A stretch of 64,000 bases of DNA from an uncultured bacterium (GCA_964621155.1 CAZULB010000001.1:10402-74401), one strand, 5' to 3'; positions 3,224 through 34,991 are shown, counted from the first letter of the stretch. The notes: generated by a model not told the origin, from the letters alone. Numbers and translations: made by a program.

Positions 3224-3274
3224 TCGGTAAACCCGGCGTCCGTTGCGGCGCCGCTATAATGGAGGAACGCGAGC

Positions 3275-17929: not shown

Positions 17930-18694
17930 CTAGTGCTTCGCGAAGAGCCCAATCACGTTCTGGGCTACCAACACCGTTCCGACGAGAAGAAGAAACACAC
18001 CGAAGGCTGGACGTAGCCGATGTGCGGGAAGCGGTTTGCTGAGGCGCTCACCCAGCAGGCTGCCGGCCGCATTGAATCCGGTAACTGTCAGTGTCAGCGG
18101 CCACGGAAAATTTTCGTGCGCGGCAAAGCCGAGGAAACCACCGAGCGAATTGATGGCGATAATCAAAAGCGACGTGCCGATGGCGTGTTTGACGTCCATG
18201 CCGCACACGATTACAAGCGCGGGCACGAGGAGAAACCCGCCACCCACCCCTATCATTCCCGTAAAAAAACCGAGCACCATGCCCACAAGCACTGCTTGCA
18301 GCGGCGGCATGTGTTCGCCTTCTCCGGTCGCCGACGGAACACGCCGGCGAATCATGAGCAGCGCCGCGACCACCACGACGACCGCGAATGTGGTGAGCAG
18401 CACGCTTTCGGGAATGAATTCGGCCACGCGACCGCCCCCGTACGCACCCACGATGCCGGCGATTGCCCAACGGATACCAATCGCCCAGCGCACATTCATC
18501 GAACGCGCATGCGCCAGCGCGGCCAGCAGGCCCGTGCACATGAGAATGAAGAGGGACATGCCCAACGACGTCTTAACGGGAACGTCGAGCACGTAGACAA
18601 GAATGGGAACCAGCAGGATGGAGCCGCCCGCGCCGAAGATGCCGAACACGGTTCCGGCGGTGAATGCGAGCAAGCCCGCTAAGAACAGGTGCAT
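17930..18694 (-). CDS. TauE/SafE-family sulfite/anion exporter
   Basis: Two-fold repeat membrane protein with GAGGSILLVPILVYVL and GVGGGFLLVPALVIVCGM motifs. Confidence 0.8.
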   Translation of the reverse strand: MHLFLAGLLAFTAGTVFGIFGAGGSILLVPILVYVLDVPVKTSLGMSLFILMCTGLLAALAHARSMNVRWAIGIRWAIAGIVGAYGGGRVAEFIPESVLLTTFAVVVVVAALLMIRRRVPSATGEGEHMPPLQAVLVGMVLGFFTGMIGVGGGFLLVPALVIVCGMDVKHAIGTSLLIIAINSLGGFLGFAAHENFPWPLTLTVTGFNAAGSLLGERLSKPLPAHRLRPAFGVFLLLVGTVLVAQNVIGLFAKH

Positions 18695-18794: not shown

Positions 18795-19820
18795 CTAGTC
18801 CTGGATCGGAATTACCTCGAGGTGATGGCGGTGCCCGCCGTGGCGGATAACGGTCAGCGTTACCCTGTTTCCGGGAGTGATGCGCGCGAGTCCGCGCTGC
18901 AGATCGTCGATGCTGGAGATGCCGTCACCGTCCATTGATACGATCACATCGCGCTCACGAACGCCCGCGCGCTGCGCGGGACCGTCGGCCATCAACGACA
19001 GCACTTCGACGGCACTGGCTTCCGCGAGGTTGAATTCACGCTGCACGCGGCGATTGACGGGACGCGTCTGTCCCACCACACCCAGCACGGCGCGATGCAC
19101 GCGACCGCCCGTCATGAGCTCGCTCACCACCCACGTCATGGTGGCGGACGGAATCGCGAAGCACAGCCCCTGCGCCATGCGAATCATGGCCGTGTTCACG
19201 CCGACCACGCGGCCGCGGCTGTCCACCAGCGGACCGCCCGAATTGCCGGGGTTCAAGGCCACGTCGGTTTGAATGATGTTCTCGATGAGACGCCCCGACT
19301 GGCCGCGCAGACTCCGGCCCAGCGCGGACACCACGCCCGTCGACACCGTGCTTTGAAATCCGAGCGGGTTGCCGATGGCAATCACGAGTTGTCCGACGCG
19401 AAGGTTCTCCGAGCGTCCGATTTCGACGGGCACCAGCCCGCCTTCGGGAACGCGCAGCAGGGCGAGATCGGTGGCGGGATCCGAGCCGACCACGCGCGCG
19501 CCCAGCTCGCGTCCGTCGGTAAACACGGCCGTGACGGCGTTGGCCTTCTCGACCACGTGGTGATTGGTGATTACGAATCCGTCGGGTGCGATGACGAAAC
19601 CGGACCCGGCTCCCTGCCCCACACCACCCTGGCCATTTTCAGCGGTGATACGAATGCTGACCACGGAAGGCGCCATGCGGTCGGCCACGCCAATCACGGC
19701 GCGCGAGTAGGCGTCGAGCAACTCGAGGTCGTCTTCTTCGGGGAGCTCCGGGGCAAAGCCTGCGCGGCGCAGCGGATCTGCTTCACTGGCAACGAACTGC
19801 AGCGGCCGTTCGGGTTTCAT
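18795..19820 (-). CDS. HtrA/DegP-like trypsin-fold serine protease with C-terminal PDZ domain
   Basis: Catalytic triad context (GFVITNHHVV, DLALLRV, NPGNSGGPLVD) followed by a PDZ-like segment. Confidence 0.8.
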   Translation of the reverse strand: MKPERPLQFVASEADPLRRAGFAPELPEEDDLELLDAYSRAVIGVADRMAPSVVSIRITAENGQGGVGQGAGSGFVIAPDGFVITNHHVVEKANAVTAVFTDGRELGARVVGSDPATDLALLRVPEGGLVPVEIGRSENLRVGQLVIAIGNPLGFQSTVSTGVVSALGRSLRGQSGRLIENIIQTDVALNPGNSGGPLVDSRGRVVGVNTAMIRMAQGLCFAIPSATMTWVVSELMTGGRVHRAVLGVVGQTRPVNRRVQREFNLAEASAVEVLSLMADGPAQRAGVRERDVIVSMDGDGISSIDDLQRGLARITPGNRVTLTVIRHGGHRHHLEVIPIQD

Positions 19821-20027
19821 GCCGGCAATATAAAAAGGGTCTCAAGCGCGACGCAAATGGGAGTGGTTTGAAAGCTCGACCGGCCATGATGGCGGCGGAG
19901 CTCTCGGACGCGCGTGTCTTCGCGGCGAGTTGCGCTGCGCGCGTACAATGCCTCATCAGCGCGCGAGCACTGTCTGAGCAAGCGAAGACACCGCACGTTC
20001 GAGAGCAGAGCCGGCGTCGAGACAGGG

Positions 20028-20681
20028 CTAGTAGTTGTGCCGCAGGATCTCGCCTTCCACCATGAACACCACGTCTTCCGCGATGTTGGTGGCCAGGTCG
20101 CCGATGCGCTCCAGGTGCCGCGTGGCCGAGATGGTATTGACGGCCGATTCGATTAGCGCCACGTCGTTGCGCATCACCGTCTGCATGGCGGAATACATCA
20201 GTCTGTGCACGCGGTCCACCTCGTCGTCCATGTCGCACACCTTGCGGGCGAGGTTGGCGTCGTGCTCGATCAGCGCGGTCAGGCTGTCCTTCATCATGCG
20301 CTGCACCGTCTGCACCAGGAGATCAAAGTCCTCGGGCCGCGGAACCGGCTCCAGTCCCGCCAGTACCACGGCACGCTCCGCGATGGACACGGCGTGGTCG
20401 CCGATGCGCTCGAGGTCGTTGTTCACCTTGAGCACGGTGATGATGTAGCGCAGATCCGCCGCCACCGGCTGATGCAGCGCCAGCATCTTGAGCGCGTGGT
20501 CCTCGATGCGGTTCTCGTGGTCGTTGATGGCATCATCGACGGCGATCACCTCGCGCGCGAGGTTCCTGTCCCGGCGCACGAGCGCGTTGATGGCGCGATT
20601 GGTGGCTTCCTCCACCATCGCCCCCATGGTGAGGAGCTCTTTGGAGAGCTCATCGAGATCGATCTGCAGGTGTTTTGTCAT
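20028..20681 (-). CDS. phoU: Phosphate signalling complex protein PhoU
   Basis: MTKHLQIDLDELS...two PhoU repeats (RIGDHAVSIAE, RIGDLATNIAEDV). True start is ATG 20681, overlapping the phoR TGA by 4 nt. The 370-aa ORF-track extension is read-through into phoR. Confidence 0.85.
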   Translation of the reverse strand: MTKHLQIDLDELSKELLTMGAMVEEATNRAINALVRRDRNLAREVIAVDDAINDHENRIEDHALKMLALHQPVAADLRYIITVLKVNNDLERIGDHAVSIAERAVVLAGLEPVPRPEDFDLLVQTVQRMMKDSLTALIEHDANLARKVCDMDDEVDRVHRLMYSAMQTVMRNDVALIESAVNTISATRHLERIGDLATNIAEDVVFMVEGEILRHNY

Positions 20682-22501
20682 TGGCTGGCCGCGAATCCTT
20701 CCCGTCGCGGGGTCTCGCCCGGCTTCAGGCCGAGCTGGACGCGGAACGTGCTCCCGCGCCCGGACGCGCTCTTCAGCGATACACTGCCGCCGTGCGCGAG
20801 CGCAACATGTTTGACGATTGAAAGTCCAAGTCCGGTGCCGCCCAGCTGGCGCGAACGCGCCTTGTCCACGCGATAGAACCGTTCGAACACGCGGCTCTGT
20901 TCTTCGGGCGGAATGCCGATGCCGGTATCGGCCACCTCGAGCACGGCGCTGCCGTTTTCGGCCACGAGCTTCACATCCACGCGGCCGCCCGAGGGTGTGT
21001 ACTTGATGGCGTTGCCCACCAGGTTGTCGACCAGCTCGCGCATGGCCTCGGAGTCGCCTTCTATGGTTACCGGGCGCTCGGGAACGCCAAGGTGCAGCTC
21101 GACGCGTTTGGTTTCCGCCGCATGCGTCTGCGTGCGGCACGACTCCGCCACCGTCTCGCGCAGATCCATGGCTTCGAAACGCAGACCGCCGGGGCCCGAT
21201 TCCAGCCGCGACAGGGTCAGGAGATCGGACACCAGATTGCCGAGACGGGTCGACTGGTCGCGAATCTTCTCGATGAAACGGTCGTGGGTGTCCCTGTCCA
21301 TCTGGCGGTCGTCGATCAGGGTTTCCACCAGGCCGCGGATGGCGGTCAGCGGAGTCTTGAGCTCGTGCGAGATGTTGGCCACGAAATCGCGCCGGACCGA
21401 CTCGAGCTGGCGCAGCTCGCTGACGTCGTGCAACACCACCACCGCGCCGTCGATCTGGTCCGCACCGTTGCGCAACGGTGTCGCCGTGAGCTGGATGACC
21501 TGGTCCTTGACCGGTGTCGGGATGCGCACTTCGGAAACGCGCACACGATTCTGGCGCATGGCTTCGCCCAACGCGTCACTCACCTCGACCACGCGCATCA
21601 CTTCCCAGATGCGCCGGCCCAGCGCCGTCTTCGCATCGATGCCGAGAATGGCCTGGGCCGCGGCGTTGGCGTGCACCACGCGCTCGTCGCGATCCACCGC
21701 CACCACGCCTTCCACCATGCCGGCCAGAATGGCCAGCGTCTTGTTGCGGTCCGCCGCCATGGTGTCGAGCTGCGTATGCAGCTGCGCGGTCATGGCGTTG
21801 AGGGCTTCCGCCAGCTCGCCGATTTCGTCCGAGCGCTGCACGTGCAGCCGGGGCGCTGCTTCGCCGCTGGCCACCGCACGCGCCGCGTCCGTCATGTTGA
21901 TCAGCGGTTGCGTGAAAGCGCGCGCCACCAGCAGCCCGAGCACCAGCGCCGCCAGCACCGGCAGCACCATGGCCAGGGCAACGCCACGCCGCACCTCCGC
22001 GCGTCGCGCGGCAATCGCCTCGAGCGTGGCCGACGTGCGCACAAAACCGGCCAGCACCCCCTGCTTCATCACCGGGATGGCGAGATACATCGAATTCGCC
22101 GCCACCGTGCGACTGAAGCGCGTGGACGTGCCCATGCCGTTGTTGGCCGCAGCCATGATCTCGGGACGATCGCGGTGATTGTCCATCGTTGCCGGATCTT
22201 CATTGGAATCCGCCAGCACGCGTCCGTCGGCGGCAATCACCGTGTAGCGCACGCCGGTGCGGGTGCCCAGCGCGCGGATGCGCTGCTCGAACGCCGAGTC
22301 CGGGGGCGCATCGACGAACGGCGCCGCAATGTCGCGCACCAGAAAGGCGTCGCGCTGCAGTGCGTCGCGGATGTCGTCCGACACACCGCGCTCCGCGTCG
22401 CGCACAAGCACCAGCCCCACCACGACCGCGGTGGCGACGATAATGAACGCATAACCTGCGTAGAGCTCCCAGAGGAAGCGGGAACGAAGCAAGCGGTTCA
22501 C
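20678..22501 (-). CDS. phoR: Sensor histidine kinase PhoR-like
   Basis: Two TMs, HAMP/PAS-like region, H-box HELKTPLTAIRG, G-box GGTGLGLSIVKHVALAHGG. Confidence 0.8.
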   Translation of the reverse strand: MNRLLRSRFLWELYAGYAFIIVATAVVVGLVLVRDAERGVSDDIRDALQRDAFLVRDIAAPFVDAPPDSAFEQRIRALGTRTGVRYTVIAADGRVLADSNEDPATMDNHRDRPEIMAAANNGMGTSTRFSRTVAANSMYLAIPVMKQGVLAGFVRTSATLEAIAARRAEVRRGVALAMVLPVLAALVLGLLVARAFTQPLINMTDAARAVASGEAAPRLHVQRSDEIGELAEALNAMTAQLHTQLDTMAADRNKTLAILAGMVEGVVAVDRDERVVHANAAAQAILGIDAKTALGRRIWEVMRVVEVSDALGEAMRQNRVRVSEVRIPTPVKDQVIQLTATPLRNGADQIDGAVVVLHDVSELRQLESVRRDFVANISHELKTPLTAIRGLVETLIDDRQMDRDTHDRFIEKIRDQSTRLGNLVSDLLTLSRLESGPGGLRFEAMDLRETVAESCRTQTHAAETKRVELHLGVPERPVTIEGDSEAMRELVDNLVGNAIKYTPSGGRVDVKLVAENGSAVLEVADTGIGIPPEEQSRVFERFYRVDKARSRQLGGTGLGLSIVKHVALAHGGSVSLKSASGRGSTFRVQLGLKPGETPRREGFAASQ

Positions 22502-22502
22502 A

Positions 22503-23192
22503 TCAATCCTTGAAGCGATATCCCACGCCGCGAATAGTTTCTATCAACTGGCGGTGATCGCCGAGTTTCTTGCGAATGGCACGCACGTGCACATCGATGT
22601 TGCGATCGATCACGATGGCTTCTTCACCGATCACGCGCGTCAACAGCTGGTCGCGCGTAAACACGCGCCCCGGGTGCGAGGCCAGGAAGTGCAGCAGCCG
22701 GAATTCGGTCGCCGTGAGCACGAGGGAGTCGCCGTCCACGCGCACGTCGTGGCGCTGCGGGTCGATGATGACGCCATCGCGCACGATGCGGTCCTTACGT
22801 TCCTTCTCCGGCGCGCTGCGCGAGCGGCGCAGCACCGCCTTTACGCGCGCCACCAGTTCCTTGGGACTGAACGGCTTGACCATGTAGTCGTCCGCGCCCA
22901 TGCCGAGCCCGAGTACGACGTCGGATTCCTCGCCCTTCGCCGTCACCATTATGATAGGAACACCCTGCGTCACCGGGTCGGCCTTGAGCTTGCGGCACAG
23001 GTCGAGCCCGTCGATCTCGGGAAGCATGAGATCGAGGATCACCAGGTTGGGCACGGCGCGTTCGATCTTCGAAAGCCCGTCTTCGCCGCTCGTGCTGGTG
23101 GTGACATCGAAGCCCTCGCGCTTCAAGTTGTACGCGATGACCTCGAGGATGTCCTCCTCGTCCTCGATGACGACAATCTTGTCCGTCTTCAC
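22503..23192 (-). CDS. phoB: OmpR/PhoB-family response regulator
   Basis: Receiver domain (IVVIEDEEDI...LDLMLPEIDG...VTAKGEE) plus winged-helix C-terminus (VIGEEAIVIDRNIDVHV...GVGYRF). Confidence 0.85.
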   Translation of the reverse strand: MKTDKIVVIEDEEDILEVIAYNLKREGFDVTTSTSGEDGLSKIERAVPNLVILDLMLPEIDGLDLCRKLKADPVTQGVPIIMVTAKGEESDVVLGLGMGADDYMVKPFSPKELVARVKAVLRRSRSAPEKERKDRIVRDGVIIDPQRHDVRVDGDSLVLTATEFRLLHFLASHPGRVFTRDQLLTRVIGEEAIVIDRNIDVHVRAIRKKLGDHRQLIETIRGVGYRFKD

Positions 23193-23207
23193 GGTATTAC
23201 CTGCTTT

Positions 23208-24116
23208 CTAGCCAAAGCGGCCCGTGACGTAATCCGAAGTCTCGGTGAGCTTCGGGTTGGTGAAAATCTCCGCGGTGGGTCCGTATTCGATCAGCCGGCC
23301 CAGGTACATGAACGCGGTGAAATCGCTCACGCGCGCGGCCTGCTGCATGTTGTGCGTGACGATCACAATCGAGTACGAACCCTTGAGCTCGTGCATGAGG
23401 TCCTCGATCTTGCCGGTGGCGATGGGATCAAGGGCCGAGCACGGTTCGTCCATCAGCAGCACTTCCGGTTCGCCCGCAATTGCGCGCGCGATGCACAGTC
23501 GCTGCTGCTGCCCGCCGGAAAGGCCCAGGGCACTCTCGTTGAGGCGGTCTTTCACTTCATCCCACAGCGCCGCGCCACGCAGGCTTCTCTCGCATACTTC
23601 ATCCAGGGTAGCGCGCGCGCGCACGCCGTCGACGCGCAGCGAATACACCACGTTCTCGTAGATGCTCATCGGGAATGGATTCGATTTCTGGAACACCATG
23701 CCCATGCGCTTGCGCAGCTCGATCACGTCGACGGCACGACCGTAGATCGAGTCGCCATTGAGCAGAATGTCGCCTTCGATTCGTACGTCGTCGAGCAGGT
23801 CGTTCAGGCGGTTGATCGAGCGCAGGAGCGTCGACTTACCGCAGCCCGACGGGCCGATGATGGCGGTGATGCGTCCCTGCGGCATTCCCATCTCGATGTC
23901 ATGCAGCGCCTGCTTGACGCCGTACCAGAAACGGAAGCGCTGCACGTCGAGCACGTGTTTCTCGCGCGCCAGCGCGTCGTGCACCACCGTGGACACGGAC
24001 TCCCCGCGCGCAATCGCCTCCAACCGGTTCATCGAACCGGAGGGCGGTGTGGTCTCGCCGGATGGGGCGGAAAAAATGGAACGATCGGGCACCGAATTCT
24101 CCCGGTTGGTAGGCAT
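23208..24116 (-). CDS. pstB: Phosphate ABC transporter ATP-binding protein PstB
   Basis: Walker [10 protein letters not shown], signature [14 protein letters not shown], Walker B LLMDEP. Start ATG 24116 overlaps the pstA TAA by 1 nt. The ORF-track upstream extension is read-through. Confidence 0.85.
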
Positions 24117-25780
24117 TAGAAGGTACCACCCACGAACTTTCGCCGCAATCTCGTGCGCACGCGGATGGCGGCCACGTTGAGCAGCGCGATAATGGTTATG
24201 AGGAGCAGCGTGGTGGTGAACACCATCGGCTTGGCGGCCTCGCTGTTCTGGCTCTGGAAACCGACGTCGTAGATGTGGAATCCGAGGTGCATGAAGCTGC
24301 GCTCGGGGTGCACGTAGGGAGCGGTGGCGTCTATGGGCAGCGCCGGGGCGAGCTTCACCGCGCCCACCAGCATCAGGGGCGCCACTTCCCCCGCGCCACG
24401 CGCGATGGCCAGGATGAATCCGGTCATGATACCGGGCATGGCGCGCGGCAGCACGATACGGCGGATCGTCTGCCACTTGCTGGCTCCGCATGCGTACGAA
24501 CCTTCGCGCATCGATCGCGGCACCGCCGCCAGTGCTTCTTCCGTGGCCACTACCACGACGGGAAGGGTGAGCAAGGCGAGCGTGAGCGATGCCCAGATCA
24601 GACCGCCCTTGCCGAAGGTCGGATTGGGGAGGCTCTCCGCAAAGAACGTGCGGTCGATGGATGCTCCCATGATGTAGCAGAAGAACCCCAGGCCGAATAC
24701 GCCGAACACGATGCTCGGCACACCGGCAAGATTGTTGATGGCGATGCGCACGGCACTCACCACGGCGCCGGCCCGGGCATACTCGCGCAGGTACAGCGCC
24801 GCCAGCACACCGAACGGAACCACCGCGATCGACATCAGCAGCGTCATGACGATGGTGCCGACAATGGCGGGAAACACGCCGCCCTCGCTGTTGGCTTCGC
24901 GCGGCTCACCGCACAAGAACTCTTTCCATCGCGAGCCATACACACCGAGACGCGAGCCCGCGTTCAGGCGATTGGCCGGATATGCGCGCACAATGTCCGC
25001 GACTGCGATCGCCGCCGTGTCGCCTTTGGCGGTGGCCAGCATCAACTGGTAGCGCGCGTTCTCCTGGTCCAGCGCGCGCATCTCATCCTCGAGCGCGGAG
25101 CGCCGCGCATCCATCGCGCGCTGCTCTCCCTCATGGATGGCGCTCGCCTTCCTGTATTCGGCGGAATCTTTCCCGCTGGCGCGTTCCACCTTGAGCACGT
25201 GCAGCCGCCCACGCTCCACGGTCGCGTTGAGGGCACCAAATTCATCGCGCTGCAGGTGGTAACGCCGGTTGAAGCGGTCAATCACGCCACCGTGAATCTT
25301 TCCGAACTCGGCCCATGCCGCCTCCGGGCCGGTCGCGACCGGCTTGCCGTCGATTCGAAACTCGGTGGGCACGCCGTAGAAACGGCCCCAGGCCCGACGT
25401 TCCAGCACGAGTCCCCACTCCGGACGCGATTCATTGGTGATGTCGGCGTCGTCCACCCACTCGAAGTGCGTGCCCGTTCGCTCGAAGTTGCCGGTGCGCA
25501 CAAGGCGCCGGTGCGCGTCGCCCTCGGTCTGGTGTCGCGTCACCTCTCCCATGAGCACTGTGCCGTTGTTGAGCTCGACGCGCTCCAGCGGATGCGGCCA
25601 GAACGTGGTGCCTCCCTGCCACAGCACCAGCGCGAGCAGGCCGACCACCATCACCGCACACACGGCAAGCGCACCACCCATGAGCCAGATCATGTTCTCG
25701 CCGTGCGCAAGCAGTGATGTGCTTCCGCTCACGCGCTTGAGAAACCTCGGCGCCCCGGGAGTACGCAGCGGCATGCTCAT
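24116..25780 (-). CDS. pstA: Phosphate ABC transporter permease PstA (long form with ~270-aa N-terminal extension)
   Basis: C-terminal ABC permease core ([20 protein letters not shown]...EAA-like region). Gene sits between pstC and pstB. Confidence 0.8.
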
Positions 25781-28302
25781 ATCTGCGCCGACCTTTTTCG
25801 GAATCGGAGGCGCACAATCTCAGCCACCGTGTTCACCAGAAACGTCATGGCGAAGAGCAGGAGTGCCGCAAAGAACAGGGTGCGATAGTGGGTGCTGTTG
25901 CGGACAGCTTCCGGAAGCTCAACGGCGATATTCGCGGACAGTGTGCGGAAGCCATTGAACACATTCATCTGCATCACGGGCGTGTTGCCGGCCGCCATGA
26001 GCACGATCATGGTTTCACCCACAGCGCGCCCCAGGCCGATCATGATGGCGGAGAAGAGGCCGCTCATCGCCGTCGGTAGCACGATACGCACCGCCGTCTG
26101 CCAGGGTGTGGCGCCGGCGCCGAGAGACGCGGCCCGAAGGTGCGAGGGCACCGCGGAAAGCGCATCCTCGGCGATGGTGTAGATGATGGGAATCACCGCG
26201 AAGCCCATCACGAACCCGACCACCAGCGCGTTACGCTGCACGTAGGTGCCGAAGAATCCGCCGCGCGGGTCCGCGTGGACGAGGGTGAGCAGTCCCGCCA
26301 CCGCCAGGGTCAGGAGCAGCGTGGCAATGGCGGCAACTACAAAACGAATGCAGTCCATGCCCGCCACCCGCGAGCGCGACATCGTCATCGACGCACTGCG
26401 GAAACGCGCCTCGGTGAAGCGGCTCGTGCCGAAAATGACAACGGCGGCACACAACGGGATCAACAGCAACACCCATCCCCCGAAACCGCTGCCGCGCTGG
26501 CCATCGAGCCACGACATGATGTCGCCCGCGAAGAGCGTGCGCTCGGCCCACGGCCCCATCAGGGCGGCAAGACCCAGAGAGAATGGCAGGACCAGCAGAA
26601 TGATGACAAAGCGCAAGCGCGACAGGCGGCGTGTCGTGGACGCGGGCAGAAGCTGCCAGAGATACGCGCCGGCCAGCAGTGTCAGCGGCACGATGAGAAA
26701 TCCAACCATCACCGACGCGACGTGCCCCTGCACAAAGGGCGCGAACACGAGCGCGGCCAGGAATCCAAGCACCACGCTGGGCAGACTGGCCATGGACTCG
26801 ATCAGCGTTTTCAAGCGCGGGCGCAGCGACGGAGAAACAAACTCACTGGTGAAGATCGCGGCCAGCAGAGCCAGCGGCACACCAAAAAGCATGGCGTAGA
26901 AAGTGGCCTTGAGCGTACCGAACACGAGCGGCCACAGGCCGAGCTTGGATTCGAAGTCGTCCGTGCCGGCCGACGACTGCCACACGTGCGTGGGCGTCGC
27001 GTAACCTTCGTACCATACGGGGCTGAAGAGCGAACGCAGCGTGACTTCCGGATGCCCGGGTTCGAGGTCAAAGTGCTGGAGCGATGCGCCCGACGCGACC
27101 AGCAATCCGTCCGTCTTGGGCGCAAACGCGAGCGCGTCGACGCGCGCCTTTGGATCGAGCGTCATGTCGATCACGCGCTTGCCGCTGGTGCCCTGGAACA
27201 TGCGCACACGGCCATCGGCGTAGCCTGCCACGAAGAGTCTTGCGCGCGCTGAAGCCGCAAGCGCCGTCACCGCGGACCCGTCACCGCGGAACACGCGCGG
27301 GCTCACCAGCGTGGGCTTGCCGTTCGACTCCGCCTTGAACCACGCCGTCACGTTTCCCTTGTCGTCGCCGAAGAGCACGGTGGAACGGCCGATGAGCGTG
27401 CTGACCGCCGTGATCCGGGCGTTACCCGCCAGCATTCCGGTGGCGATTGCGGGCAGCGCATCGTTGCGCGCATCGAGCATGGTGGCATCGCCGTCGGCGC
27501 CAACGACGAGAATCGAGCTGCCTTCTTCGGTAACGATGACCCGCGCATCGGCGCCGGTTTCGGGCGTCGCCGTCGCGTGGCGGACGATGGCGGTCGCGGT
27601 TTCTCCGGTAAACTCATTTTCCTCGCGCTTGACGCGATCCAGGATGAGCGAATCCCCGGCGAGGGTCACCACCATGAAACCGTTATCGTCGGCGAGATGA
27701 TCGATGGCGCGCAGAGTGGCCGCGCCCACGGCGGGAATCGTCCCGGTACTGTCGAGCTGGGCGCGCTGGCTGCGCAGGGACCCCTCGCTCGTGCGTTCGA
27801 TCACCGCGTCACCGGCCGTTACACAGTCGCCCGCATGCGCCGGCGGTGTATTGGCGGCCACCTCCGCTTCCGCGGGATAGGAGGTGTCAAAGCCGACTCT
27901 GTAGAGCTGAATGCTGCCGTCAGTGCGGCCGAGTGCGAGTGAGCTGGACCTCACATCGAACGACGCGACTGCCAGCGAATCTGCGGAAACGAGGGTTCGC
28001 GTGAGGAGCACGTCACCATTGTCGAGTCGGAAGGAGCGAAATACGCCGTCCTTCCCCAGCTCCCAACCGCAGACCCGGTATTCATCCACTCCCGTGTACA
28101 ACGGTGACGGCGCAGCAGTGGCGCCGTGACCCGACGGCGCCACATCGCCGGAGCGAAACAGCGGATACACCACGCTGAGCAGAAACAAGAATACGCCGGT
28201 GACAGCGAGAATCGTCCCGATGCCCCCGACGGTAATACACATTGCGGCCAACTTGTCCGCGACGCGAACCGTCCAGCGTGTCTTGTGCGCTCGTTTTCTC
28301 AT
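25777..28302 (-). CDS. pstC: Phosphate ABC transporter permease PstC with ~400-aa N-terminal extracytoplasmic domain
   Basis: C-terminal six-TM permease core (GTLKATFYAMLFGVPLALLAAIFTSEF...). N-terminal TM, then a beta-rich region. Sits immediately after pstS. Confidence 0.75.
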   Translation of the reverse strand: MRKRAHKTRWTVRVADKLAAMCITVGGIGTILAVTGVFLFLLSVVYPLFRSGDVAPSGHGATAAPSPLYTGVDEYRVCGWELGKDGVFRSFRLDNGDVLLTRTLVSADSLAVASFDVRSSSLALGRTDGSIQLYRVGFDTSYPAEAEVAANTPPAHAGDCVTAGDAVIERTSEGSLRSQRAQLDSTGTIPAVGAATLRAIDHLADDNGFMVVTLAGDSLILDRVKREENEFTGETATAIVRHATATPETGADARVIVTEEGSSILVVGADGDATMLDARNDALPAIATGMLAGNARITAVSTLIGRSTVLFGDDKGNVTAWFKAESNGKPTLVSPRVFRGDGSAVTALAASARARLFVAGYADGRVRMFQGTSGKRVIDMTLDPKARVDALAFAPKTDGLLVASGASLQHFDLEPGHPEVTLRSLFSPVWYEGYATPTHVWQSSAGTDDFESKLGLWPLVFGTLKATFYAMLFGVPLALLAAIFTSEFVSPSLRPRLKTLIESMASLPSVVLGFLAALVFAPFVQGHVASVMVGFLIVPLTLLAGAYLWQLLPASTTRRLSRLRFVIILLVLPFSLGLAALMGPWAERTLFAGDIMSWLDGQRGSGFGGWVLLLIPLCAAVVIFGTSRFTEARFRSASMTMSRSRVAGMDCIRFVVAAIATLLLTLAVAGLLTLVHADPRGGFFGTYVQRNALVVGFVMGFAVIPIIYTIAEDALSAVPSHLRAASLGAGATPWQTAVRIVLPTAMSGLFSAIMIGLGRAVGETMIVLMAAGNTPVMQMNVFNGFRTLSANIAVELPEAVRNSTHYRTLFFAALLLFAMTFLVNTVAEIVRLRFRKRSAQI

Positions 28303-28378
28303 CTATATGTGTGCCGAAGCCGGCGAGCGACTTTCGTCGCCCGCCGGCCCGGTTGTAACCTTGCGTGGAAGCAACGCC

Positions 28379-29386
28379 TCAGTTGGCGGCCTTCATGGTC
28401 AGGCCGAGCTTGGCGAGCTCCTCGCTCGCGATCTTGGCGTTGACCGGGAAGTAACCGTCCTTGATCACGTCCGCCTGGCCGTCCCGGCTGAGCACATACA
28501 GCAGGAACTCGCGACGGAGCGGATCGAGCTGCGTACCCGGCTTGAGATTCACGTAGACGTACAAGAAGCGCGAGAGCGGGTACTTGCCCGTGTAGGCGAA
28601 TTCCGGTGTGGCCGAGATGGCCTCATCCGTCGCCGTGGCCTTGAGCGGTACTTCGCGCACATCGGCCGATTTGTAGCCGATGCCGCTGTAGCCAATGGCG
28701 TACTTGTCGCTCGAGACCGCCTGGACGACCGCCGCGCTACCCGGCTGCTCCTTCACTTCATCCTTGTAATCACCCTTGAAGAGCGCGTGCTCTTTGAAAT
28801 ACCCGTAGGTGCCCGAGGCCGAATTGCGGCCGTAGAGGCTGATGGGCTTGTCGGCCCATTCGCCGGTGAGACCAAGGTCGCCCCAGGTGCGAATGTCCGC
28901 GGCTGCGCCACCCTTGCGCGTCTTCGAGAAGATAGCGTCGATCTGCTGCATGGTCAGATTCTTGATCGGGTTGTCCTTGTTGACATAGATCGAAAGCATG
29001 TCGATCGACGTGCGGATCGCCGTCGGCTTGTACCCGTATTTCGCCTCGAACTGGTCGACCTCTTCATCCTTCATCATGCGGCTCATCGGACCAAAGGTCG
29101 CGGTGCCTTCGACGAGCGCCGGGGGAGCCGTCGAAGAACCCTTGCCTTCGATCTCGACCTGGACGTTCGGATACGCCTTGCGGAAATCTTCCGCCCACAG
29201 CGTCATCATGTTGTTCATGGTGTCCGAGCCCACACTCTTGATGTTGCCCGACACGCCCGAGACCGTCTTGTACGGCGCGAGCTTCGAATCCACTTTCACC
29301 GCCGTGTCCGCAACGGCCATGGCCACCATCGCCACCAGCGCGCCGGTGATCACCAGCGACACTTTACCAAAGGTTGAGCGAATCAT
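28379..29386 (-). CDS. pstS: Phosphate ABC transporter substrate-binding protein PstS
   Basis: PstS-family motifs (SGVSGNIKSVGSDTMNNMM...GTATFGPMSRMMKDEE). Start ATG 29386 with a GAGGAGG RBS. Confidence 0.8.
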   Translation of the reverse strand: MIRSTFGKVSLVITGALVAMVAMAVADTAVKVDSKLAPYKTVSGVSGNIKSVGSDTMNNMMTLWAEDFRKAYPNVQVEIEGKGSSTAPPALVEGTATFGPMSRMMKDEEVDQFEAKYGYKPTAIRTSIDMLSIYVNKDNPIKNLTMQQIDAIFSKTRKGGAAADIRTWGDLGLTGEWADKPISLYGRNSASGTYGYFKEHALFKGDYKDEVKEQPGSAAVVQAVSSDKYAIGYSGIGYKSADVREVPLKATATDEAISATPEFAYTGKYPLSRFLYVYVNLKPGTQLDPLRREFLLYVLSRDGQADVIKDGYFPVNAKIASEELAKLGLTMKAAN

Positions 29387-29468
29387 GTCTGCAGGTCCTC
29401 CTCGACAGGGCGCCGCAGGCGGCGCCGAAAATTGTTTGATCCTCAAGTCCGTGAGGAGATTAGCGAGG

Positions 29469-29566
29469 CCGGATAAAGATTGTATTAAGGAAAGCTAAAG
29501 GTTTGCGACCGCGGTGAGGATGCGGTGCAAACTGTTACAAGCTAACTAGTTACCGGATAAAGATTG
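29469..29566. promoter_or_regulatory. pstS upstream region with two copies of CCGGATAAAGATTG (29469..29482 and 29553..29566)
   Basis: Exact 14-bp direct repeat, 84 bp apart, upstream of pstS on the transcribed side. Candidate Pho-regulon operator, by inference only. Confidence 0.3.
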
Positions 29567-30859
29567 GCTGGCGCTGTCCCCGGAACGGGAGGAATCGGCC
29601 GGCTCGGGCGTCGGGGCCGCCCGCATGATCTGGGCACGCTGGATCAGCATCTGCGCCCGCTCGCCGTACTCTTCACTGGCCGCCGCAACGGTGAGATGGG
29701 TCATGGCCAGGTCGGGCTGGTTCAGCTCGAGCGCGCAGTAGCCGAGCATCATGTACGGGCGCGGCTTCTCAGGAGAGAGCTTCACGCACTCAGTGAATGC
29801 TTTGTATGCCTCTTCGAAATGTTTTTCCATGACCTGCAGGTCGCCGAGCAACGACCAGAGCTGAAAGGTCGGAGCCTCGCTGAGATTCTTGTTCAGGACC
29901 ACCAGCGCGCTGTCCGGCTGGAAGGAGGCCATGTAAGCAGACGCGATACGCTCCGCGTCGGTGCCCGAGGACGCGTCGCGCATGGCGACGGTGTAATGCT
30001 CCGCTGCCGCCGCCGGCGCATCGATGGCCGAGTAAAGATCACCCAGCTGCTTGTGCTCGGCTGCCGTGAGCGGACGTAGATACCCCACTACGGTGAGCGC
30101 GACCGCTGCCTGCTGGTAGTTCGACGTGCTGGCGTAGAACTGGAAGGCGAGATAATGGGCATCGGCGCTGCTGGGAAACTTCTCCAGCATGGCGTTGACC
30201 GCGCGCTGCCCACGATCCTTGTCCTCCGCCTGCAGACAACCGCTCACCAGTCCGCGGTACCATTCGAACTTCGGCGCACCGTGCTTGCCGGAAACCAGGT
30301 CTTCCAGCATCGGTAGCGCGCCGTTCGCGTCGCCGGACTGAAGCCGCGCGGCCGCTGCGTAGTAAAGAAGCTCGGGGCGCTTTTCGACGGAGAGATCGTA
30401 GCCCTTCTGCAGCGCTTCCGACGCGCGCTTGAAGTCTCCCAGGCCGTACGCGGTTTCACCCAGCGCGAGCCAGCCTTCGTCGTAGCGCGGCTCGAGCGCC
30501 ACAACTTTTTCGTACTCCTTGAGGGCCAGGTCGCGCTTGTCCACCTGCGCAAGCATGCCCGCGTACTGATAGTGCACGAGGAAGTGTTCGTCCTTCGGGT
30601 GGCCCTTGATGTATTTCGCGAGTGTTTCGACCGCTTTGTCGTTCTCGCCCTTTTCCATGTGCTGCTGTGCTTCGAACAGCGCCATGCGCGCATCGCGCGG
30701 GAGATCTTCCAGCGTCTCGATGGGCTTTTCAGCTTTGGCAGCGACCGCAGGAGCTTTGGCCGCAGCCGCCTTGTCGGCGTCTGCCGCCAGCGCGAGCGGT
30801 GATCGTGTTGCCAACGCGATGAGAAGCCCGAAAAGAATTCTGAGCCTGCGAAAAGTCAT
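29546..30859 (-). CDS. Secreted TPR-repeat protein (TtpD-like component of TonB2-type system)
   Basis: Signal peptide MTFRRLRILFGLLIALATRSPLALA (ATG 30859, 2 nt after the tonB stop). Multiple TPR-like helices. Positional equivalence to ttpD. Confidence 0.6.
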   Translation of the reverse strand: MTFRRLRILFGLLIALATRSPLALAADADKAAAAKAPAVAAKAEKPIETLEDLPRDARMALFEAQQHMEKGENDKAVETLAKYIKGHPKDEHFLVHYQYAGMLAQVDKRDLALKEYEKVVALEPRYDEGWLALGETAYGLGDFKRASEALQKGYDLSVEKRPELLYYAAAARLQSGDANGALPMLEDLVSGKHGAPKFEWYRGLVSGCLQAEDKDRGQRAVNAMLEKFPSSADAHYLAFQFYASTSNYQQAAVALTVVGYLRPLTAAEHKQLGDLYSAIDAPAAAAEHYTVAMRDASSGTDAERIASAYMASFQPDSALVVLNKNLSEAPTFQLWSLLGDLQVMEKHFEEAYKAFTECVKLSPEKPRPYMMLGYCALELNQPDLAMTHLTVAAASEEYGERAQMLIQRAQIMRAAPTPEPADSSRSGDSASQSLSGN

Positions 30860-30861
30860 GG

Positions 30862-31521
30862 CTATGTATTCAGTTTGAAGTGGAGTGCGGTAACCACCCA
30901 CGACGTCACTTTCTTGCCGCCGATGGTGCCGGCCTCGAAGCGCCACTTCGAAACCGCATTGATCACCGAGTCGTCAAAGGTCTCTTTGGGACCGCCCGTC
31001 ACACGCGATTCGACGATCTGCACCTCGCCGACCGAGCCGTCTTCACGAACCAGAATCTTGATCTGCACGGTGCCTTCGACACCCTGTTCGCGCGCCTTGA
31101 ACGGGTACACCGGCGGCATCTTCACGATGGCACGCGGCGCCTGGTCGAGCTCGTACTGATCGAAGACGAGCTTCCGGGTCACGCTGTTGTCGGTAGCGCC
31201 GCCGAGGTTGATCGACACCGCCGCGCCCGCGAGATTGCCCAGCGCCTGCAGCTCCGCGTTCATGTCGATGCTTTCCAGGAGGTCCTTGGTGACATCGGGC
31301 TGGGGTTGCTCCTGCGGCTTCTCCGGCGGTGCGACCTGCTGTTCTTCCTGCGGCTTCTCGTCGGCGAGATCCATCAACGCAACGCCGCTGCCCATCTGGA
31401 TGTCCTGCTTCACGGCCACTTTGTGGTGCGTGAGAAACAATCCGGTACCGAGCAATGCCACGTTGGCGCAGATCGCCACCGCGCCGGCCGGGAAAATCCA
31501 TTTCGGAAAGCGATCGAACAT
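30862..31521 (-). CDS. tonB: Energy transducer TonB
   Basis: N-terminal TM, Pro/Glu-rich spacer (PEKPQEQPQP), C-terminal TonB domain (PVYPFKAREQGVEGTVQIKILVREDGSV). Start at ATG 31521. Confidence 0.75.
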   Translation of the reverse strand: MFDRFPKWIFPAGAVAICANVALLGTGLFLTHHKVAVKQDIQMGSGVALMDLADEKPQEEQQVAPPEKPQEQPQPDVTKDLLESIDMNAELQALGNLAGAAVSINLGGATDNSVTRKLVFDQYELDQAPRAIVKMPPVYPFKAREQGVEGTVQIKILVREDGSVGEVQIVESRVTGGPKETFDDSVINAVSKWRFEAGTIGGKKVTSWVVTALHFKLNT

Positions 31522-31523
31522 TT

Positions 31524-31940
31524 CTACGATTCCCACTCGCGCTTGGCCGCCAGACTCACGTTCTTGGCACCCGCGAGCCGGCACTGGTCCATGACTTTGA
31601 CGATGTCGCCCGTCTTGCTGTCGCGATCCGCCACCACCACCACACCCGCTTCCGGATCACCGGCGAGCTCGCGCTCGACCAGACCGCGCACACGGCGCAC
31701 ATCGACACGCTTGCCCTCCATGTAGATGTCGCCGTTGGAGGAGACGCCGATCATGATGCTGCCGTGATCTTTCACTTCGGCCGTCGACGCCGTGGAGCGC
31801 TGCACGTCGATACCGGTTTCGCGCACGAACGATGTCGAGGCCACGAAGAAGATGAGCAGCACCATCATGACGTCGATCAGCGAGACCACGTTGATCTCGA
31901 CTTTTTCGTCGCCGCGAATTGTTTTGCGGATGTTGATCAT
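31524..31940 (-). CDS. exbD: Biopolymer transport protein ExbD/TolR
   Basis: INVVSLIDVMMVLLIFFV TM followed by a periplasmic domain. 138 aa. Confidence 0.85.
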   Translation of the reverse strand: MINIRKTIRGDEKVEINVVSLIDVMMVLLIFFVASTSFVRETGIDVQRSTASTAEVKDHGSIMIGVSSNGDIYMEGKRVDVRRVRGLVERELAGDPEAGVVVVADRDSKTGDIVKVMDQCRLAGAKNVSLAAKREWES

Positions 31941-31949
31941 ATCGGTTCC

Positions 31950-32543
31950 TCAGCGAACATGGTGCTCGAGCACCAGCATGGTTTGATCAAGATGATGCGA
32001 GAGACGGCTGGCGCGGCGCGACAGCGACGCGCTGAGCAGCAGGCCCGGGATTGCCACCAGCAGGCCCGCTTCGGTTGCCACCAGGGCCTCCGAAATTCCG
32101 CCCGCCAGTGGGCGCGCGTTACCCGTGCCGATGGCCGAGATCACGTTGAATGTCGCGATCATGCCGCTCACGGTGCCGAGCAGACCGAGCAGCGGCGCCA
32201 CCGATCCCAGCGCGGCAATCACCGACAGGTTGCGGTTGAGCTCGGGACGCATCTTGATGGCGCATTCCGAAAGTATGCGCTTGTCGAGCTCGGGCTCGCC
32301 GGTGCGCATCCGCGTGTAACTCTGGATCAAGCGTGCGCGCAGTCCGTGGCCAAAATGGTTCACCGGATTTCCCTGCACGGCGTGCACGGCGTCCTGGATG
32401 CCCAGATCTTTGGATGTGAGCCGGTGGAACGTAATGAGGCGTTCCGCGATCAGTGTCCACATCAGGAATGAGACCGCGGAAAGCGGAATCATCACCCAGC
32501 CGCCGGAGCGAGCGAGATCAAGCAGTGACTGCCAGAGATCCAC
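31950..32543 (-). CDS. exbB: MotA/TolQ/ExbB proton-channel protein ExbB
   Basis: Three TMs; conserved C-terminal GTVSGMIATFNVISAIGTGNARPLAGGISEALVATEAGLLVAIP. Confidence 0.8.
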   Translation of the reverse strand: MDLWQSLLDLARSGGWVMIPLSAVSFLMWTLIAERLITFHRLTSKDLGIQDAVHAVQGNPVNHFGHGLRARLIQSYTRMRTGEPELDKRILSECAIKMRPELNRNLSVIAALGSVAPLLGLLGTVSGMIATFNVISAIGTGNARPLAGGISEALVATEAGLLVAIPGLLLSASLSRRASRLSHHLDQTMLVLEHHVR

Positions 32544-33933
32544 GACGCTGCTCCTTCTGAATGATGTTGGTGAGACCCACGGCCTTCTCCTCCATATCGC
32601 TCACCACCGCGTTGGCGCGGCGCGAGAGGAACACGTGCAGGAGCATGGTGGGTACCGCGATACACAGGCCCCACTTGGTGGCGATCAGCGCTTCCGAAAT
32701 ACCGCCCGACATGAGCTTGGGGTCGCCGGTGCCGTACACGGTGATCACGTTGAAGGTCCGGATCATACCCGTCACCGTGCCCAGCAGACCGAGTAACGGT
32801 GAGATGGCACCCAGGGCCGCCATGATCGAAAGGCCTTTTTCGAGGCGCGGGATCTCGCTCAGGATGGATTCCTGCAGCACGTTCTCGAGCGTTTCGCGGT
32901 CCTCGTTGCGCGCATTGATGCCGTCGCGCAGCACGTTCACCACCGGCCAGTTGTGATTCTTGTGTTCCTGCATGATCGTGTCGACGGCGTCCCAATCGCC
33001 CTTGGCCGCCAGATCATTGACCCGGCCCATGAGCTTGTCGGTGTCACCGTGCACGCGCTTCAGGTACACGACTTTGTAGAGCGTGAAGAGGATCACGGCA
33101 ACGGCCACGATCAGGATGGGCCACATGATGTTGCCACCCAGCTTGAATTCCTCGAGCATGCTCAGGTGGTGCGTCAGCTGCGACAGCGACTCGCCGGCGG
33201 CGATGTCGATGGGAACCACTTCGCCCTTGCCCGCGAAATAGTTGCGCATCGAGCGCGCCATGCTGCCCGAAGGCAGCACGGAGAGCGCGACAAGATTCTT
33301 CGATTCGGTGGTGTAGCTCAGGAAGCCGACTTCCTTGCCGTCGCGGTAAAGTGCGGTAAAACGGCCCAGGAGCAGAATGTCACCGTCGTGATCGTTTCCG
33401 TCACGGCCGACGTACTTGCCCTTCTGCAGTGCCACCTGGGACGAACGCTTCATTTCTTCAAAGAGCACCGCCGTCATGCCGCCGATATCATGGATGTCGG
33501 GGAAATGGCCGGTATCCAGAAGCGGTGAAATCTTTGCAAGCGGCGTCTCGTCGAGCGCCGTGCGCGGCGAGGCCTGCAGCATCGCTTCCACGTCGCGCGC
33601 GGCCATGCGCACGTTGCCGGACAGCTCGTGGAAGTCGGACTCCTTGGTGGACCACTTTTCGTTGAGCGCATCGTGGCGCGCCTGCCTGTCGGCTTTCTGC
33701 TTACGCAGCGCCGCAATGTCGTTCTCGAGACTCTTTTCGCGCGCCTCGAGCTCGTTCACCTGCAGTTCCAGCGCCGCCTTGTCGGCAAAGATCTTCTGTT
33801 CGACTTCCTTCGCTTTCGCTTCCGCCGCCAGCTTGTCGGCTTCAGCCTTCTTGACGGCTTCGCGCACGTCCTGCGCTGCGACAGGCGCGGCCAGCGCACT
33901 CAGACAGAGGATGGCAATCAATAGCTTCTTCAT
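32518..33933 (-). CDS. Large MotA/TolQ/ExbB-family protein with N-terminal signal peptide and coiled-coil periplasmic domain (TtpC-like)
   Basis: Signal peptide MKKLLIAILCLSALAAPVAA. Long coiled-coil (KEVEQKIFADKAALELQVNELEAREKSLENDIAALRK). C-terminal ExbB channel core (GLLGTVTGMIRTFNVITVYGTGDPKLMSGGISEALIATKWGL). Confidence 0.7.
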   Translation of the reverse strand: MKKLLIAILCLSALAAPVAAQDVREAVKKAEADKLAAEAKAKEVEQKIFADKAALELQVNELEAREKSLENDIAALRKQKADRQARHDALNEKWSTKESDFHELSGNVRMAARDVEAMLQASPRTALDETPLAKISPLLDTGHFPDIHDIGGMTAVLFEEMKRSSQVALQKGKYVGRDGNDHDGDILLLGRFTALYRDGKEVGFLSYTTESKNLVALSVLPSGSMARSMRNYFAGKGEVVPIDIAAGESLSQLTHHLSMLEEFKLGGNIMWPILIVAVAVILFTLYKVVYLKRVHGDTDKLMGRVNDLAAKGDWDAVDTIMQEHKNHNWPVVNVLRDGINARNEDRETLENVLQESILSEIPRLEKGLSIMAALGAISPLLGLLGTVTGMIRTFNVITVYGTGDPKLMSGGISEALIATKWGLCIAVPTMLLHVFLSRRANAVVSDMEEKAVGLTNIIQKEQRRGSLAVTA

Positions 33934-34694
33934 GACTGGATCCTTCCGAGCGGGAGCGTGATCACTTTGGTCGAACGCAGGCGCATGACCATTTCACGCG
34001 CATCCGCGATCGAGTTCACGTATTTCTTGTCCATCTCGACCCACTGTCGCGAGGCGCGGTCGAACTCACCTACGCGCTTGCCGTCGGGCGAGCGCCAGTA
34101 GACCGACACGCGGCCAATCCGGATCACATCGGCGGAAATCTCTTCGCTTCCAACCTTGATGCGTTCCTGGGAGACATCGACAGTGTTGCCATAGTTGGCT
34201 TCCACCTGCAGCGCTTCCAATACGCGGCGCAGTTTCTCGGCGCCCGTCACTTCGGGCTTGGCGATGGCTTCTCGCACCGAGGCCAGACGGTCGCTGCGTT
34301 CCTTCACCAGGAAGGGAATGTCCTGCTTGACCCACTCGTCGAGGCGGTTGACCACCACATTGAGCGAATCCTCGAGGTTGTCCTTGAGCCGGGCGGACTC
34401 AACCATGCGGCGCTCGAGCTCGGCGATACCCGCGTCGAGCGAAGCCACTTCCCTCGCTTCGAAGGCTTTGGTTTTCTCGAGATAATCGACTTGCGCCCTG
34501 GCGGCGCGGTAGCGGGCGGCGTAATCGTTCTTCTCTTCCGCCCACGCTTCCTGCTTCTTCTGCGTTTGCTGCTGGGTCTCGACGGTCCTGGCGACCGTCT
34601 CGCTCAGCGACTTGTTTTCCTGGGCGCCCGCGAGCAACGCTGCACCGAGCGAGAAGCCCGTGAGGATGGTCGCGGTGCAAATCAAACGTTTCAT
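33930..34694 (-). CDS. DUF3450-like periplasmic coiled-coil protein (TtpB-like)
   Basis: Signal peptide, then a Gln/Glu-rich coiled-coil. 254 aa. First gene of the TonB2-type cluster; overlaps the next gene by 4 nt. Confidence 0.55.
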   Translation of the reverse strand: MKRLICTATILTGFSLGAALLAGAQENKSLSETVARTVETQQQTQKKQEAWAEEKNDYAARYRAARAQVDYLEKTKAFEAREVASLDAGIAELERRMVESARLKDNLEDSLNVVVNRLDEWVKQDIPFLVKERSDRLASVREAIAKPEVTGAEKLRRVLEALQVEANYGNTVDVSQERIKVGSEEISADVIRIGRVSVYWRSPDGKRVGEFDRASRQWVEMDKKYVNSIADAREMVMRLRSTKVITLPLGRIQS

Positions 34695-34835: not shown

Positions 34836-34991
34836 ATCTGGCTGTCGCGCCAGTGTGCTCCGATCGGTCCGCGCGCGTTTCTATATTTCACTTCGGCTTT
34901 ATTCCAGATTCACACGACTTCCCTAGTATCGCCCCCGTTGATCCGCGCCCGTAGGTGTCGGGAAGCGGACACAGAGACACATTCACAGGAG

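Follow-up and report, generated by a model that had tools for sequence, protein, structure and literature searches.

A long-form Pst phosphate transport locus with large predicted periplasmic modules in both membrane subunits, from an uncultured bacterium

Bacteria take up phosphate with high affinity mainly through Pst, which also provides the input to the Pho regulon. Here we describe a pst-pho locus in a 64,000-nucleotide (nt) stretch of DNA from an uncultured bacterium (GCA_964621155.1 CAZULB010000001.1:10402-74401; hereafter the window, with positions counted from its first letter). Seven collinear minus-strand genes (20028-29386), pstS-pstC-pstA-pstB-phoB-phoR-phoU, form an otherwise ordinary phosphate-uptake and regulation operon, both membrane subunits of which carry large extra predicted periplasmic domains (Table 1). 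Profile searches confirm the complete, single-strand Pho locus that had been proposed in an earlier note made from the sequence alone; the end coordinate given there, 29566, lies 180 nt past the pstS start and takes in the promoter region. Just one real intergenic gap occurs within the operon, 76 nt long and separating pstS from pstC. Candidatus Krumholzibacteria provides the best named relatives of the window proteins (91% for PstA), and the genome itself appears to be Krumholzibacteria-like.

The proteins were identified with NCBIfam and Pfam profiles. PstS scores 254.8 bits on TIGR02136 (cutoff 206.6) and also matches PF12849, PstA scores 244.4 bits on TIGR00974 over residues 287-546 (cutoff 193.45), PstB 398.2 bits on TIGR00972 (cutoff 343.2) and PhoU 203.9 bits on TIGR02135 (cutoff 130.25). 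PstC reaches 193.2 bits on TIGR02138 in two stretches, 3 bits short of the cutoff of 196.45, because insertions split the match; it passes the PF00528 threshold (29.9 bits vs 26.4), and its place in the operon between pstS and pstA-pstB matches the order in the loci of distant relatives. RefSeq labels the PstC homologues of Pseudomonas aeruginosa and Gilvimarinus generically as 'ABC transporter permease subunit' (ABC, ATP-binding cassette), which fits such a sub-cutoff score. The phoB product contains Response_reg and Trans_reg_C domains and has PhoB (TIGR02154) as its top NCBIfam match (257.9 bits, cutoff 296.2), and the top models for the phoR product are PnpS (395 bits, cutoff 400) and phoR_proteo (317.8 bits, cutoff 334.2); the names PhoB and PhoR, given from best profile matches slightly under the cutoffs and from operon context, should thus be read as putative. 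The kinase scores nearly equally on the WalK, PnpS and PhoR models, and its domains follow the order transmembrane helix (TM), periplasmic sCache-like domain, TM, HAMP, PAS, HisKA and HATPase; the PhoR of Escherichia coli is not known to have such a periplasmic domain. By homology and operon context, the locus would be active in phosphate uptake.

Table 1. Features of the pst-pho locus, with positions in the window (nt, nucleotides; aa, amino acids; TM, transmembrane helix; AF2, AlphaFold2; pLDDT, predicted local distance difference test)
Feature	Position	Strand	Remarks
pstS	28379-29386	-	335 aa; signal peptide, no lipobox Cys; ATG after GAGGAGG
pstC	25777-28302	-	permease, 841 aa
pstA	24116-25780	-	permease, 554 aa; ATGA overlap (4 nt) with pstC
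pstB	23208-24116	-	ATPase, 302 aa; overlaps pstA by 1 nt
phoB-like	22503-23192	-	OmpR-family response regulator, 229 aa; 15-nt gap from pstB
phoR-like	20678-22501	-	histidine kinase, 607 aa; 1-nt gap from phoB
phoU	20028-20681	-	217 aa, two PhoU domains; ATGA overlap (4 nt) with phoR
PstC TM1, residues 27-49	28156..28224	-	hydropathy; AF2 helix 10-49; K/R-rich cytoplasmic N-terminus before it
PstC predicted periplasmic WD40-like seven-bladed beta-propeller, residues 50-420	27043..28155	-	AF2 and Foldseek; P1-loop insert
PstC P1-loop tip, residues 421-457	26932..27042	-	PVWYEGY...WQSS.GTDDFE.K.G.WP; leads into TM2
PstC core TM2-TM3, residues 458-533	26704..26931	-	E. coli PstC alignment
PstC insertion of ~155 residues (534-689) between TM3 and TM4	26236..26703	-	hydropathy and AF2
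PstC core TM4-TM6 with EAA coupling loop, residues 690-841	25780..26235	-	E. coli PstC alignment
PstA TM1, residues 30-53	25622..25693	-	hydropathy; AF2 helix 28-59
PstA beta domain part 1, residues 54-151	25328..25621	-	periplasmic; AF2 strands 65-150, pLDDT ~80-96
PstA antiparallel helical hairpin, residues 152-243	25052..25327	-	AF2 helices 152-202 and 207-242, pLDDT ~90-95
PstA beta domain part 2 and helix, residues 244-295	24896..25051	-	AF2 strands 244-268, helix 274-290
PstA P1-loop tip REANSEGG and core TM2-TM6, residues 296-554	24119..24895	-	E. coli PstA alignment
Candidate Pho box	29474..29500	-	CTTTAGC-TTTC-CTTAATA-CAAT-CTTTATC; ~90-115 nt upstream of pstS ATG
14-nt exact direct repeat CAATCTTTATCCGG	29469-29482 and 29553-29566	-	84 nt apart; proximal copy (29469-29482) overlaps the candidate Pho box, distal copy (29553-29566) overlaps the upstream TPR gene at its end
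pstS-pstC spacer hairpin	28319..28348	-	13-bp GC-rich stem, GAAA loop, no T-run

Both long permeases are real. A PstC homologue search covering 5.8 billion proteins found more than 2000 homologues; among the best 120, identities run from 48 to 88% and practically the whole 841-residue length is covered. In the same kind of search the PstA homologues likewise cover the full length. When 51 PstC and 44 PstA sequences are aligned, conservation begins at the very first residues and continues across TM1 and the extra regions; in PstC, the early residues R4, T8 and V12 and TM1 are conserved, the TM1 region containing invariant residues between I23 and P47. The earlier note, which had given the sizes of 841 and 554 aa, had itself named the reading that would undo them, namely that the starts are mis-called and the true products are canonical permeases of ~300 aa. 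High G+C does make long spurious open reading frames (ORFs) common, and no obvious Shine-Dalgarno sequence lies ahead of the pstC ATG, but thousands of homologues span the full lengths and the inserted regions are predicted by AlphaFold2 at a pLDDT of ~85-95. Moreover, TM1, which is required by the canonical fold, sits ahead of the insertions, and an internal start would delete it. Such an annotation artefact is next to impossible, being ruled out by the full-length conservation, the conserved TM1 and the confident folds, and the sizes hold for both proteins.

Where the extra sequence sits can be read from hydropathy and from alignments with the E. coli proteins. A single TM lies near each N-terminus (PstC 27-49, PstA 30-53), with a K/R-rich tail before it and a long hydrophilic stretch after it. 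PstC (against 9k3s_B, E=1.6e-22) aligns through residues 458-533 to E. coli PstC 73-152 (TM2-3) and through residues 690-837 to 168-315 (TM4-6), and PstA (against 9k3s_A, E=1.5e-21) aligns through residues 296-472 to E. coli PstA 72-231, its REANSEGG corresponding to PNTEGG of E. coli. Because TM1 precedes the modules and the alignment sets in after them at the P1-loop tips of E. coli PstC and PstA, both modules are, as far as the alignments go, insertions at the start of the P1 loop (the periplasmic loop between TM1 and TM2), before a retained conserved tip. In PstC this tip has many invariant columns from P428 to P458 and stands directly before the stretch that aligns to E. coli PstC residue 73. 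Judging from topology rather than alignment, the TM1 of the window proteins would be the canonical TM1, and on the aligned stretches both permeases retain the canonical six-helix core. The modules had been described as N-terminal extensions; the extra sequence is real, but it is placed in the P1 loop after TM1 and not at the N-terminus. The further statements that PstC has a beta-rich module after its first TM, and that both modules are periplasmic, agree with the predicted structure and hydropathy and with the topology (K/R-rich N-termini, a single TM1 and the P1-tip alignment), respectively. For PstA, a large extra module was rightly seen, and its make-up in the AlphaFold2 model is a beta domain with a long helical hairpin.

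The PstC module is confidently predicted to be a seven-bladed WD40-like propeller. AlphaFold2, run with homologue alignments, gives ~30 beta strands in residues 50-420 at a pLDDT of 85-93, and a Foldseek search of this region against the PDB returned G-beta and eIF3i as top matches (probability 1.0, template-modelling score on the target 0.60-0.72, ~370 aligned columns). Pfam WD40 and propeller matches are weak, the best reaching 28-29 bits vs gathering thresholds of 154-320. The predicted fold is shared with the WD40 propellers of G-beta, eIF3i and RACK1, with weak sequence matches (E ~1e-6 to 1e-3) and an identity of 11-14% to the eukaryotic-type WD40 proteins, from which the PstC propeller also differs in being periplasmic and set in a membrane-protein loop. 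No other part of PstC is conserved as poorly: the mean identity of the propeller among homologues is 37%, and the figure for the core TM4-TM6 is 87%. Its conserved positions are mostly Gly and Asp-Gly turns, and invariant polar residues are few (D73, R177, R355 and some Ser/Thr).

A further insertion in PstC, overlooked in the earlier note, lies between TM3 and TM4 and comprises ~155 residues vs ~15 in E. coli. Hydropathy peaks at 528-546, 565-583, 606-624 and 654-672 coincide with AlphaFold2 helices at a pLDDT of ~80-88, and the R/K-rich loops 556-563 and 625-653 agree with the positive-inside rule. The insertion probably consists of four extra membrane helices, which would bring the total to 10 TMs.

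The PstA module (residues ~54-295) is predicted to consist of a two-part beta domain with a 92-residue helical hairpin between the parts (one helix of ~51 and one of ~36 residues), with a pLDDT of ~80-96 over residues 60-290. The first part of the beta domain contains the conserved motifs RTGNFE.TG.HFEWV and LERR.WG.FYG, and the residues R91, R95, N98, H105, E127, R128 and W131 are invariant; it matches no Pfam family, and its fold matches are weak, local and Sm/SH3-like (E 0.1-0.3). DUF3333 (PF11812), a candidate N-terminal domain of long PstA proteins, matches neither the window PstA nor any of three further long PstA proteins and was rejected as the identity of the module. The hairpin is the least conserved part of PstA (44% identity), and despite this its length is 92 aa (interquartile range 91-92) in 101 homologues; the second part of the beta domain measures 52 residues (range 51-57). 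Two loci depart from the usual hairpin length, a Krumholzibacteriia metagenome-assembled genome (MAG) with ~20 residues (L026 2691-4544) and a Phycisphaeraceae MAG with 131 (L031 9286-11682), which may be variants or assembly errors. Comparison of the hairpin with the periplasmic adaptors AcrA and MacA and the HlyD type gave no match by fold or sequence.

A search of a representative protein library with the PstA periplasmic domain returned 630 clusters at E<=1e-3, 307 of them at E<=1e-10. The matches listed resemble PstA fragments or longer PstA variants, and among the best 150 no clearly different protein context is visible. Some of the proteins with this domain are oversized (P0390, P0417 and P0445, 800-1195 aa, with the domain in 4-5 matched stretches), as are the PstC ORFs of a few loci (950-1190 aa by maximal-start estimates in L035, L042, L046 and L051, e.g., Engelhardtia mirabilis), which suggests further insertions within the periplasmic modules of these relatives.

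The earlier note had presented the two sizes as unusual, and here it was wrong: P. aeruginosa, Cellvibrio and Aeromonas have the same architecture, as do at least 593 species genomes in many phyla. The latter number comes from a scan of one genome per species for full-length homologues, in which the 80 best genomes include Planctomycetota, Kiritimatiellales, Desulfobacterota, Acidobacteriota, Nitrospirota, Nitrospinota, Spirochaetota, Alpha- and Gammaproteobacteria, Methylomirabilota and Krumholzibacteriia, with the cultured hosts Engelhardtia mirabilis, Desulfatitalea alkaliphila, Elioraea, Gilvimarinus chinensis and Psychrobium among them. Wherever both genes fall within one of these 80 loci, a long pstC is in nearly every case followed by a long pstA ORF, the ORF lengths being maximal-start estimates; exceptions are L050 and L051, with shorter or split pstA ORFs. 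The propeller and the PstA module co-occur in nearly every locus examined, and the usual gene order in the distant loci is pstS-pstC-pstA-pstB-phoU. The window PstA is 41-61% identical to 12 other long PstA proteins. PstC falls into two size classes, ~850-890 aa and ~750-770 aa, which align end to end, and the window PstC is 32-36% identical to the gammaproteobacterial ~760-aa proteins across its whole length. The PstS proteins of long-type operons are 49-73% identical across phyla (median 63%), a level that is unusually high and close to that of the ATPase (69%).

The Pst of P. aeruginosa, reportedly a genetically characterised phosphate transporter whose long PstC and PstA were already noted when its genes were first sequenced in the 1990s, is of the same type. 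A tblastn search of plasmid records led to P. aeruginosa NZ_CP070468.1 (L084), with pstS, a 677-aa 'ABC transporter permease subunit', a 558-aa PstA, pstB and phoU, so that the order pstS-pstC-pstA-pstB and the presence of phoU in the operon are common to both; in the window, phoB and phoR additionally lie between pstB and phoU. PstS of P. aeruginosa (PDB 4OMB, E=2.8e-120) is 59% identical to that of the window. Its PstA (WP_003096667.1, 558 aa) matches window residues 27-549 at 47% (E=8e-163), beta domain and hairpin included. By BLASTP, its PstC ORF (annotated as WP_003123734.1) matches window residues 6-604, from TM1 across the propeller and TM2-3 into the first extra helices, at 30% (5e-71), and residues 686-841 (TM4-6) at 62% (6e-59). 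What the P. aeruginosa protein lacks is ~80 residues of the membrane insertion (window 605-685), and it probably has two extra helices vs four in the window; the two size classes of PstC (~760 vs ~850 aa) arise because these ~80 residues are absent from the P. aeruginosa type. The PstC ORF of L084 extends over 1468-3801, the RefSeq coding sequence starting at 1768, downstream of conserved sequence, and the upstream part of the ORF aligns with window PstC 6-60, TM1 included; the annotated start of WP_003123734.1 is therefore probably ~85-100 residues too short.

The window locus shows what marks the long Pseudomonas-type Pst, i.e., a PstC domain between TM1 and the P1 tip, a PstA module and a PstS of the 4OMB (TIGR02136) subfamily, and it is one more member of a known and widespread type, not a new kind of system. 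Long-type proteins are abundant in public databases, where propeller matches have already been precomputed for many of them. A literature search, in which few subscription journals were covered, found no paper discussing the periplasmic domains of long PstC and PstA. The useful descriptive additions made here are the fold assignments, the insertion points in loops that contact PstS, the extra helices and the fixed length of the hairpin.

In type I ABC importers a folded periplasmic loop domain of a permease has a precedent in the P2 loop of MalF from the E. coli maltose transporter, which docks the substrate-binding protein. The P2 loop differs from the modules described here in lying between TM3 and TM4 of the eight-helix MalF and in its Ig-like fold, which has no relation to them in sequence or structure, and also because both permeases of the window carry modules, unlike in the MalF case. 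The short Pst of E. coli (9k3s, 9k3x, 9k3y; PMC12976172) shares with the window the TM2-TM6 cores, the P1-tip motifs, PstB and PhoU, and the import cycle is presumably of the same alternating-access kind; its PstC (319 aa) and PstA (296 aa) differ in having short P1 loops and no extra helices, and its PstS belongs to another subfamily (TIGR00975, 34 bits on the window PstS), E. coli PstS being absent from the PDB matches of the window protein. Cryo-electron microscopy of the E. coli complex revealed sparse direct contacts of PstS with PstA and PstC, with loops P1 and P3 of each permease reaching into the PstS cleft and Pro73 in P1 of PstA contacting PstS (PMC12976172).

Taken together, the locus would encode a high-affinity phosphate ABC importer of the P. 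aeruginosa type together with the regulators PhoB, PhoR and PhoU. Because the P1 loops of E. coli reach into the PstS cleft, the PstC propeller and the PstA hairpin module may be expected to flank the PstS docking site, where they could serve as a scaffold for docking or retaining PstS, in a role like that of the MalF P2 loop and unlike that of an enzyme or a separate sensor. We give this tentative reading a probability of roughly 45%. The P1-tip motifs equivalent to the PstS-contacting loops of E. coli are invariant among long-type homologues, the high conservation of PstS in long-type operons would fit extended interfaces, and the fixed length of the hairpin (92 +/- 1) despite its low identity points to a geometric constraint. 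The propeller, with few polar invariants and conserved Gly and Asp-Gly turns, looks as expected of a scaffold.

Several points weigh against a role of the modules in docking PstS. Their contact with PstS is a proposal drawn from the placement of the P1 loops, and the AlphaFold2 model is poor for the membrane part of PstA (pLDDT <55). The E. coli Pst works well without any such modules, and the literature search yielded no published experiment on them. The high conservation of PstS could also stem from lateral spread of the whole operon. The invariant residues R91, R95, H105, E127, R128 and W131 of the PstA beta domain could equally mark a small-ligand site, and it is chiefly for this cluster of Arg, His, Glu and Trp that the scaffold idea offers no specific explanation.

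A stronger version of the scaffold, in which the propeller, the hairpin and the extra PstC helices form a periplasmic cage that keeps PstS permanently engaged or gates access to it, a 'captive binding protein' importer, is somewhat unlikely; if true, the docking cycle of the long-type Pst would differ from that just solved for E. coli, and in such a cage coupling to an outer-membrane partner might come into play. A link to the outer envelope has also to be weighed without the cage, the PstA hairpin, with or without the propeller, reaching peptidoglycan or an outer-membrane phosphate porin and channelling phosphate or PstS at a contact site. The hairpin length of 92 aa, hardly varying across the 101 homologues, suits this idea too, the succession of beta half, hairpin and beta half recalls periplasmic adaptor proteins (a resemblance only), and nearly all listed host taxa belong to diderm phyla by general classification. 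As the operon has no porin gene, however, and the adjoining TonB-ExbBD cluster is syntenic in close relatives only and was not seen in the 80 distant loci, we regard such a link as improbable.

Signalling, i.e., periplasmic domains that sense phosphate or PstS occupancy and relay this to PhoR and PhoU, would be in keeping with the sharing of the operon by phoB, phoR and phoU and with the four extra PstC helices, which could give PhoR a membrane interface; in E. coli, Pst reports phosphate status to PhoR via PhoU (PMC9239213). Yet the PhoR of the window already has a periplasmic sCache-like sensor domain of its own, long PstC and PstA occur among the 80 loci with varied placement of phoBR or with no phoBR nearby, and no known ligand-binding family matches either module, and a sensing role is likewise improbable. 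The sensor or polyphosphate/organophosphate role suggested in the earlier note finds no backing, as there are no matches to enzyme or ligand-binding families and the conserved propeller residues are mostly Gly and Asp-Gly turns. That the propeller is a built-in enzyme or handler, freeing or binding phosphate from esters, phytate or polyphosphate in the manner of beta-propeller phytases or PhoX, has in its favour the existence of beta-propeller phosphatases and the location of the module at the transporter mouth, but its top fold matches are WD40 scaffolds (G-beta, eIF3i) and not phytase or PhoX, and its low conservation (37%) goes with few polar invariants and no cluster resembling a metal site. 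A phytase- or PhoX-like enzyme was rejected, with no Pfam or NCBIfam match at E<=0.01 and none among the 50 listed Foldseek matches, and this last alternative is very improbable.

The mechanism of Pst has been solved (2026) for the short E. coli form only, while the long form, used by P. aeruginosa and many environmental phyla, puts a propeller and a hairpin in the very loops that touch PstS in E. coli. Should the modules alter PstS docking or the way in which PhoR and PhoU are informed of transport, what holds for E. coli would not be directly transferable to a large share of bacteria, including the major pathogen P. aeruginosa, in which phosphate limitation controls virulence.

Upstream of pstS, a candidate Pho box consists of three CTTWA repeats in an 11-bp phase; it is unique in the window and has 0 matches in shuffled sequences, the pattern having been chosen after the site was seen. 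It has the layout of a Pho box, is kept at the same place in the relatives L081-L083 and may be bound by PhoB. The direct repeat CAATCTTTATCCGG occurs in two exact copies, with no others within 2 mismatches and 0.15 expected by chance; both copies are conserved in close relatives, the distal one in L081 and L082. The 76-nt pstS-pstC spacer has a computed folding energy of -42.5 kcal/mol (z=-6.6); its stem is kept in L081 and, changed on both arms, in L082. This hairpin probably stabilises the mRNA or acts as an attenuator, which would allow pstS expression in excess of that of the permease genes. A scan of 19700-29700 for sigma-70 promoters and intrinsic terminators gave nothing above chance.

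Directly upstream of pstS lies a TonB2-like cluster (29546-34694, minus strand) encoding a DUF3450 protein, a long MotA/ExbB-family protein, ExbB, ExbD, TonB and a TPR protein, and divergent from it is a TonB-dependent receptor gene (34938-37751, plus strand). The cluster is syntenic with the pst operon also in L081-L083, and ExbB, ExbD, TonB and TPR as BLAST queries had no matches in the 80 more distant loci; with synteny confined to close relatives, a functional tie to Pst was set aside and the cluster treated as a lineage-specific neighbourhood. Downstream of phoU are genes for an HtrA-like trypsin-PDZ protease (18795-19820, minus strand), which also follows phoU in L082, and a TauE/SafE-family exporter (17930-18694, minus strand). 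Elsewhere in the window, a cobalamin riboswitch (RF00174, 94.5 bits, full-length match) is found at 907-1105 on the plus strand.

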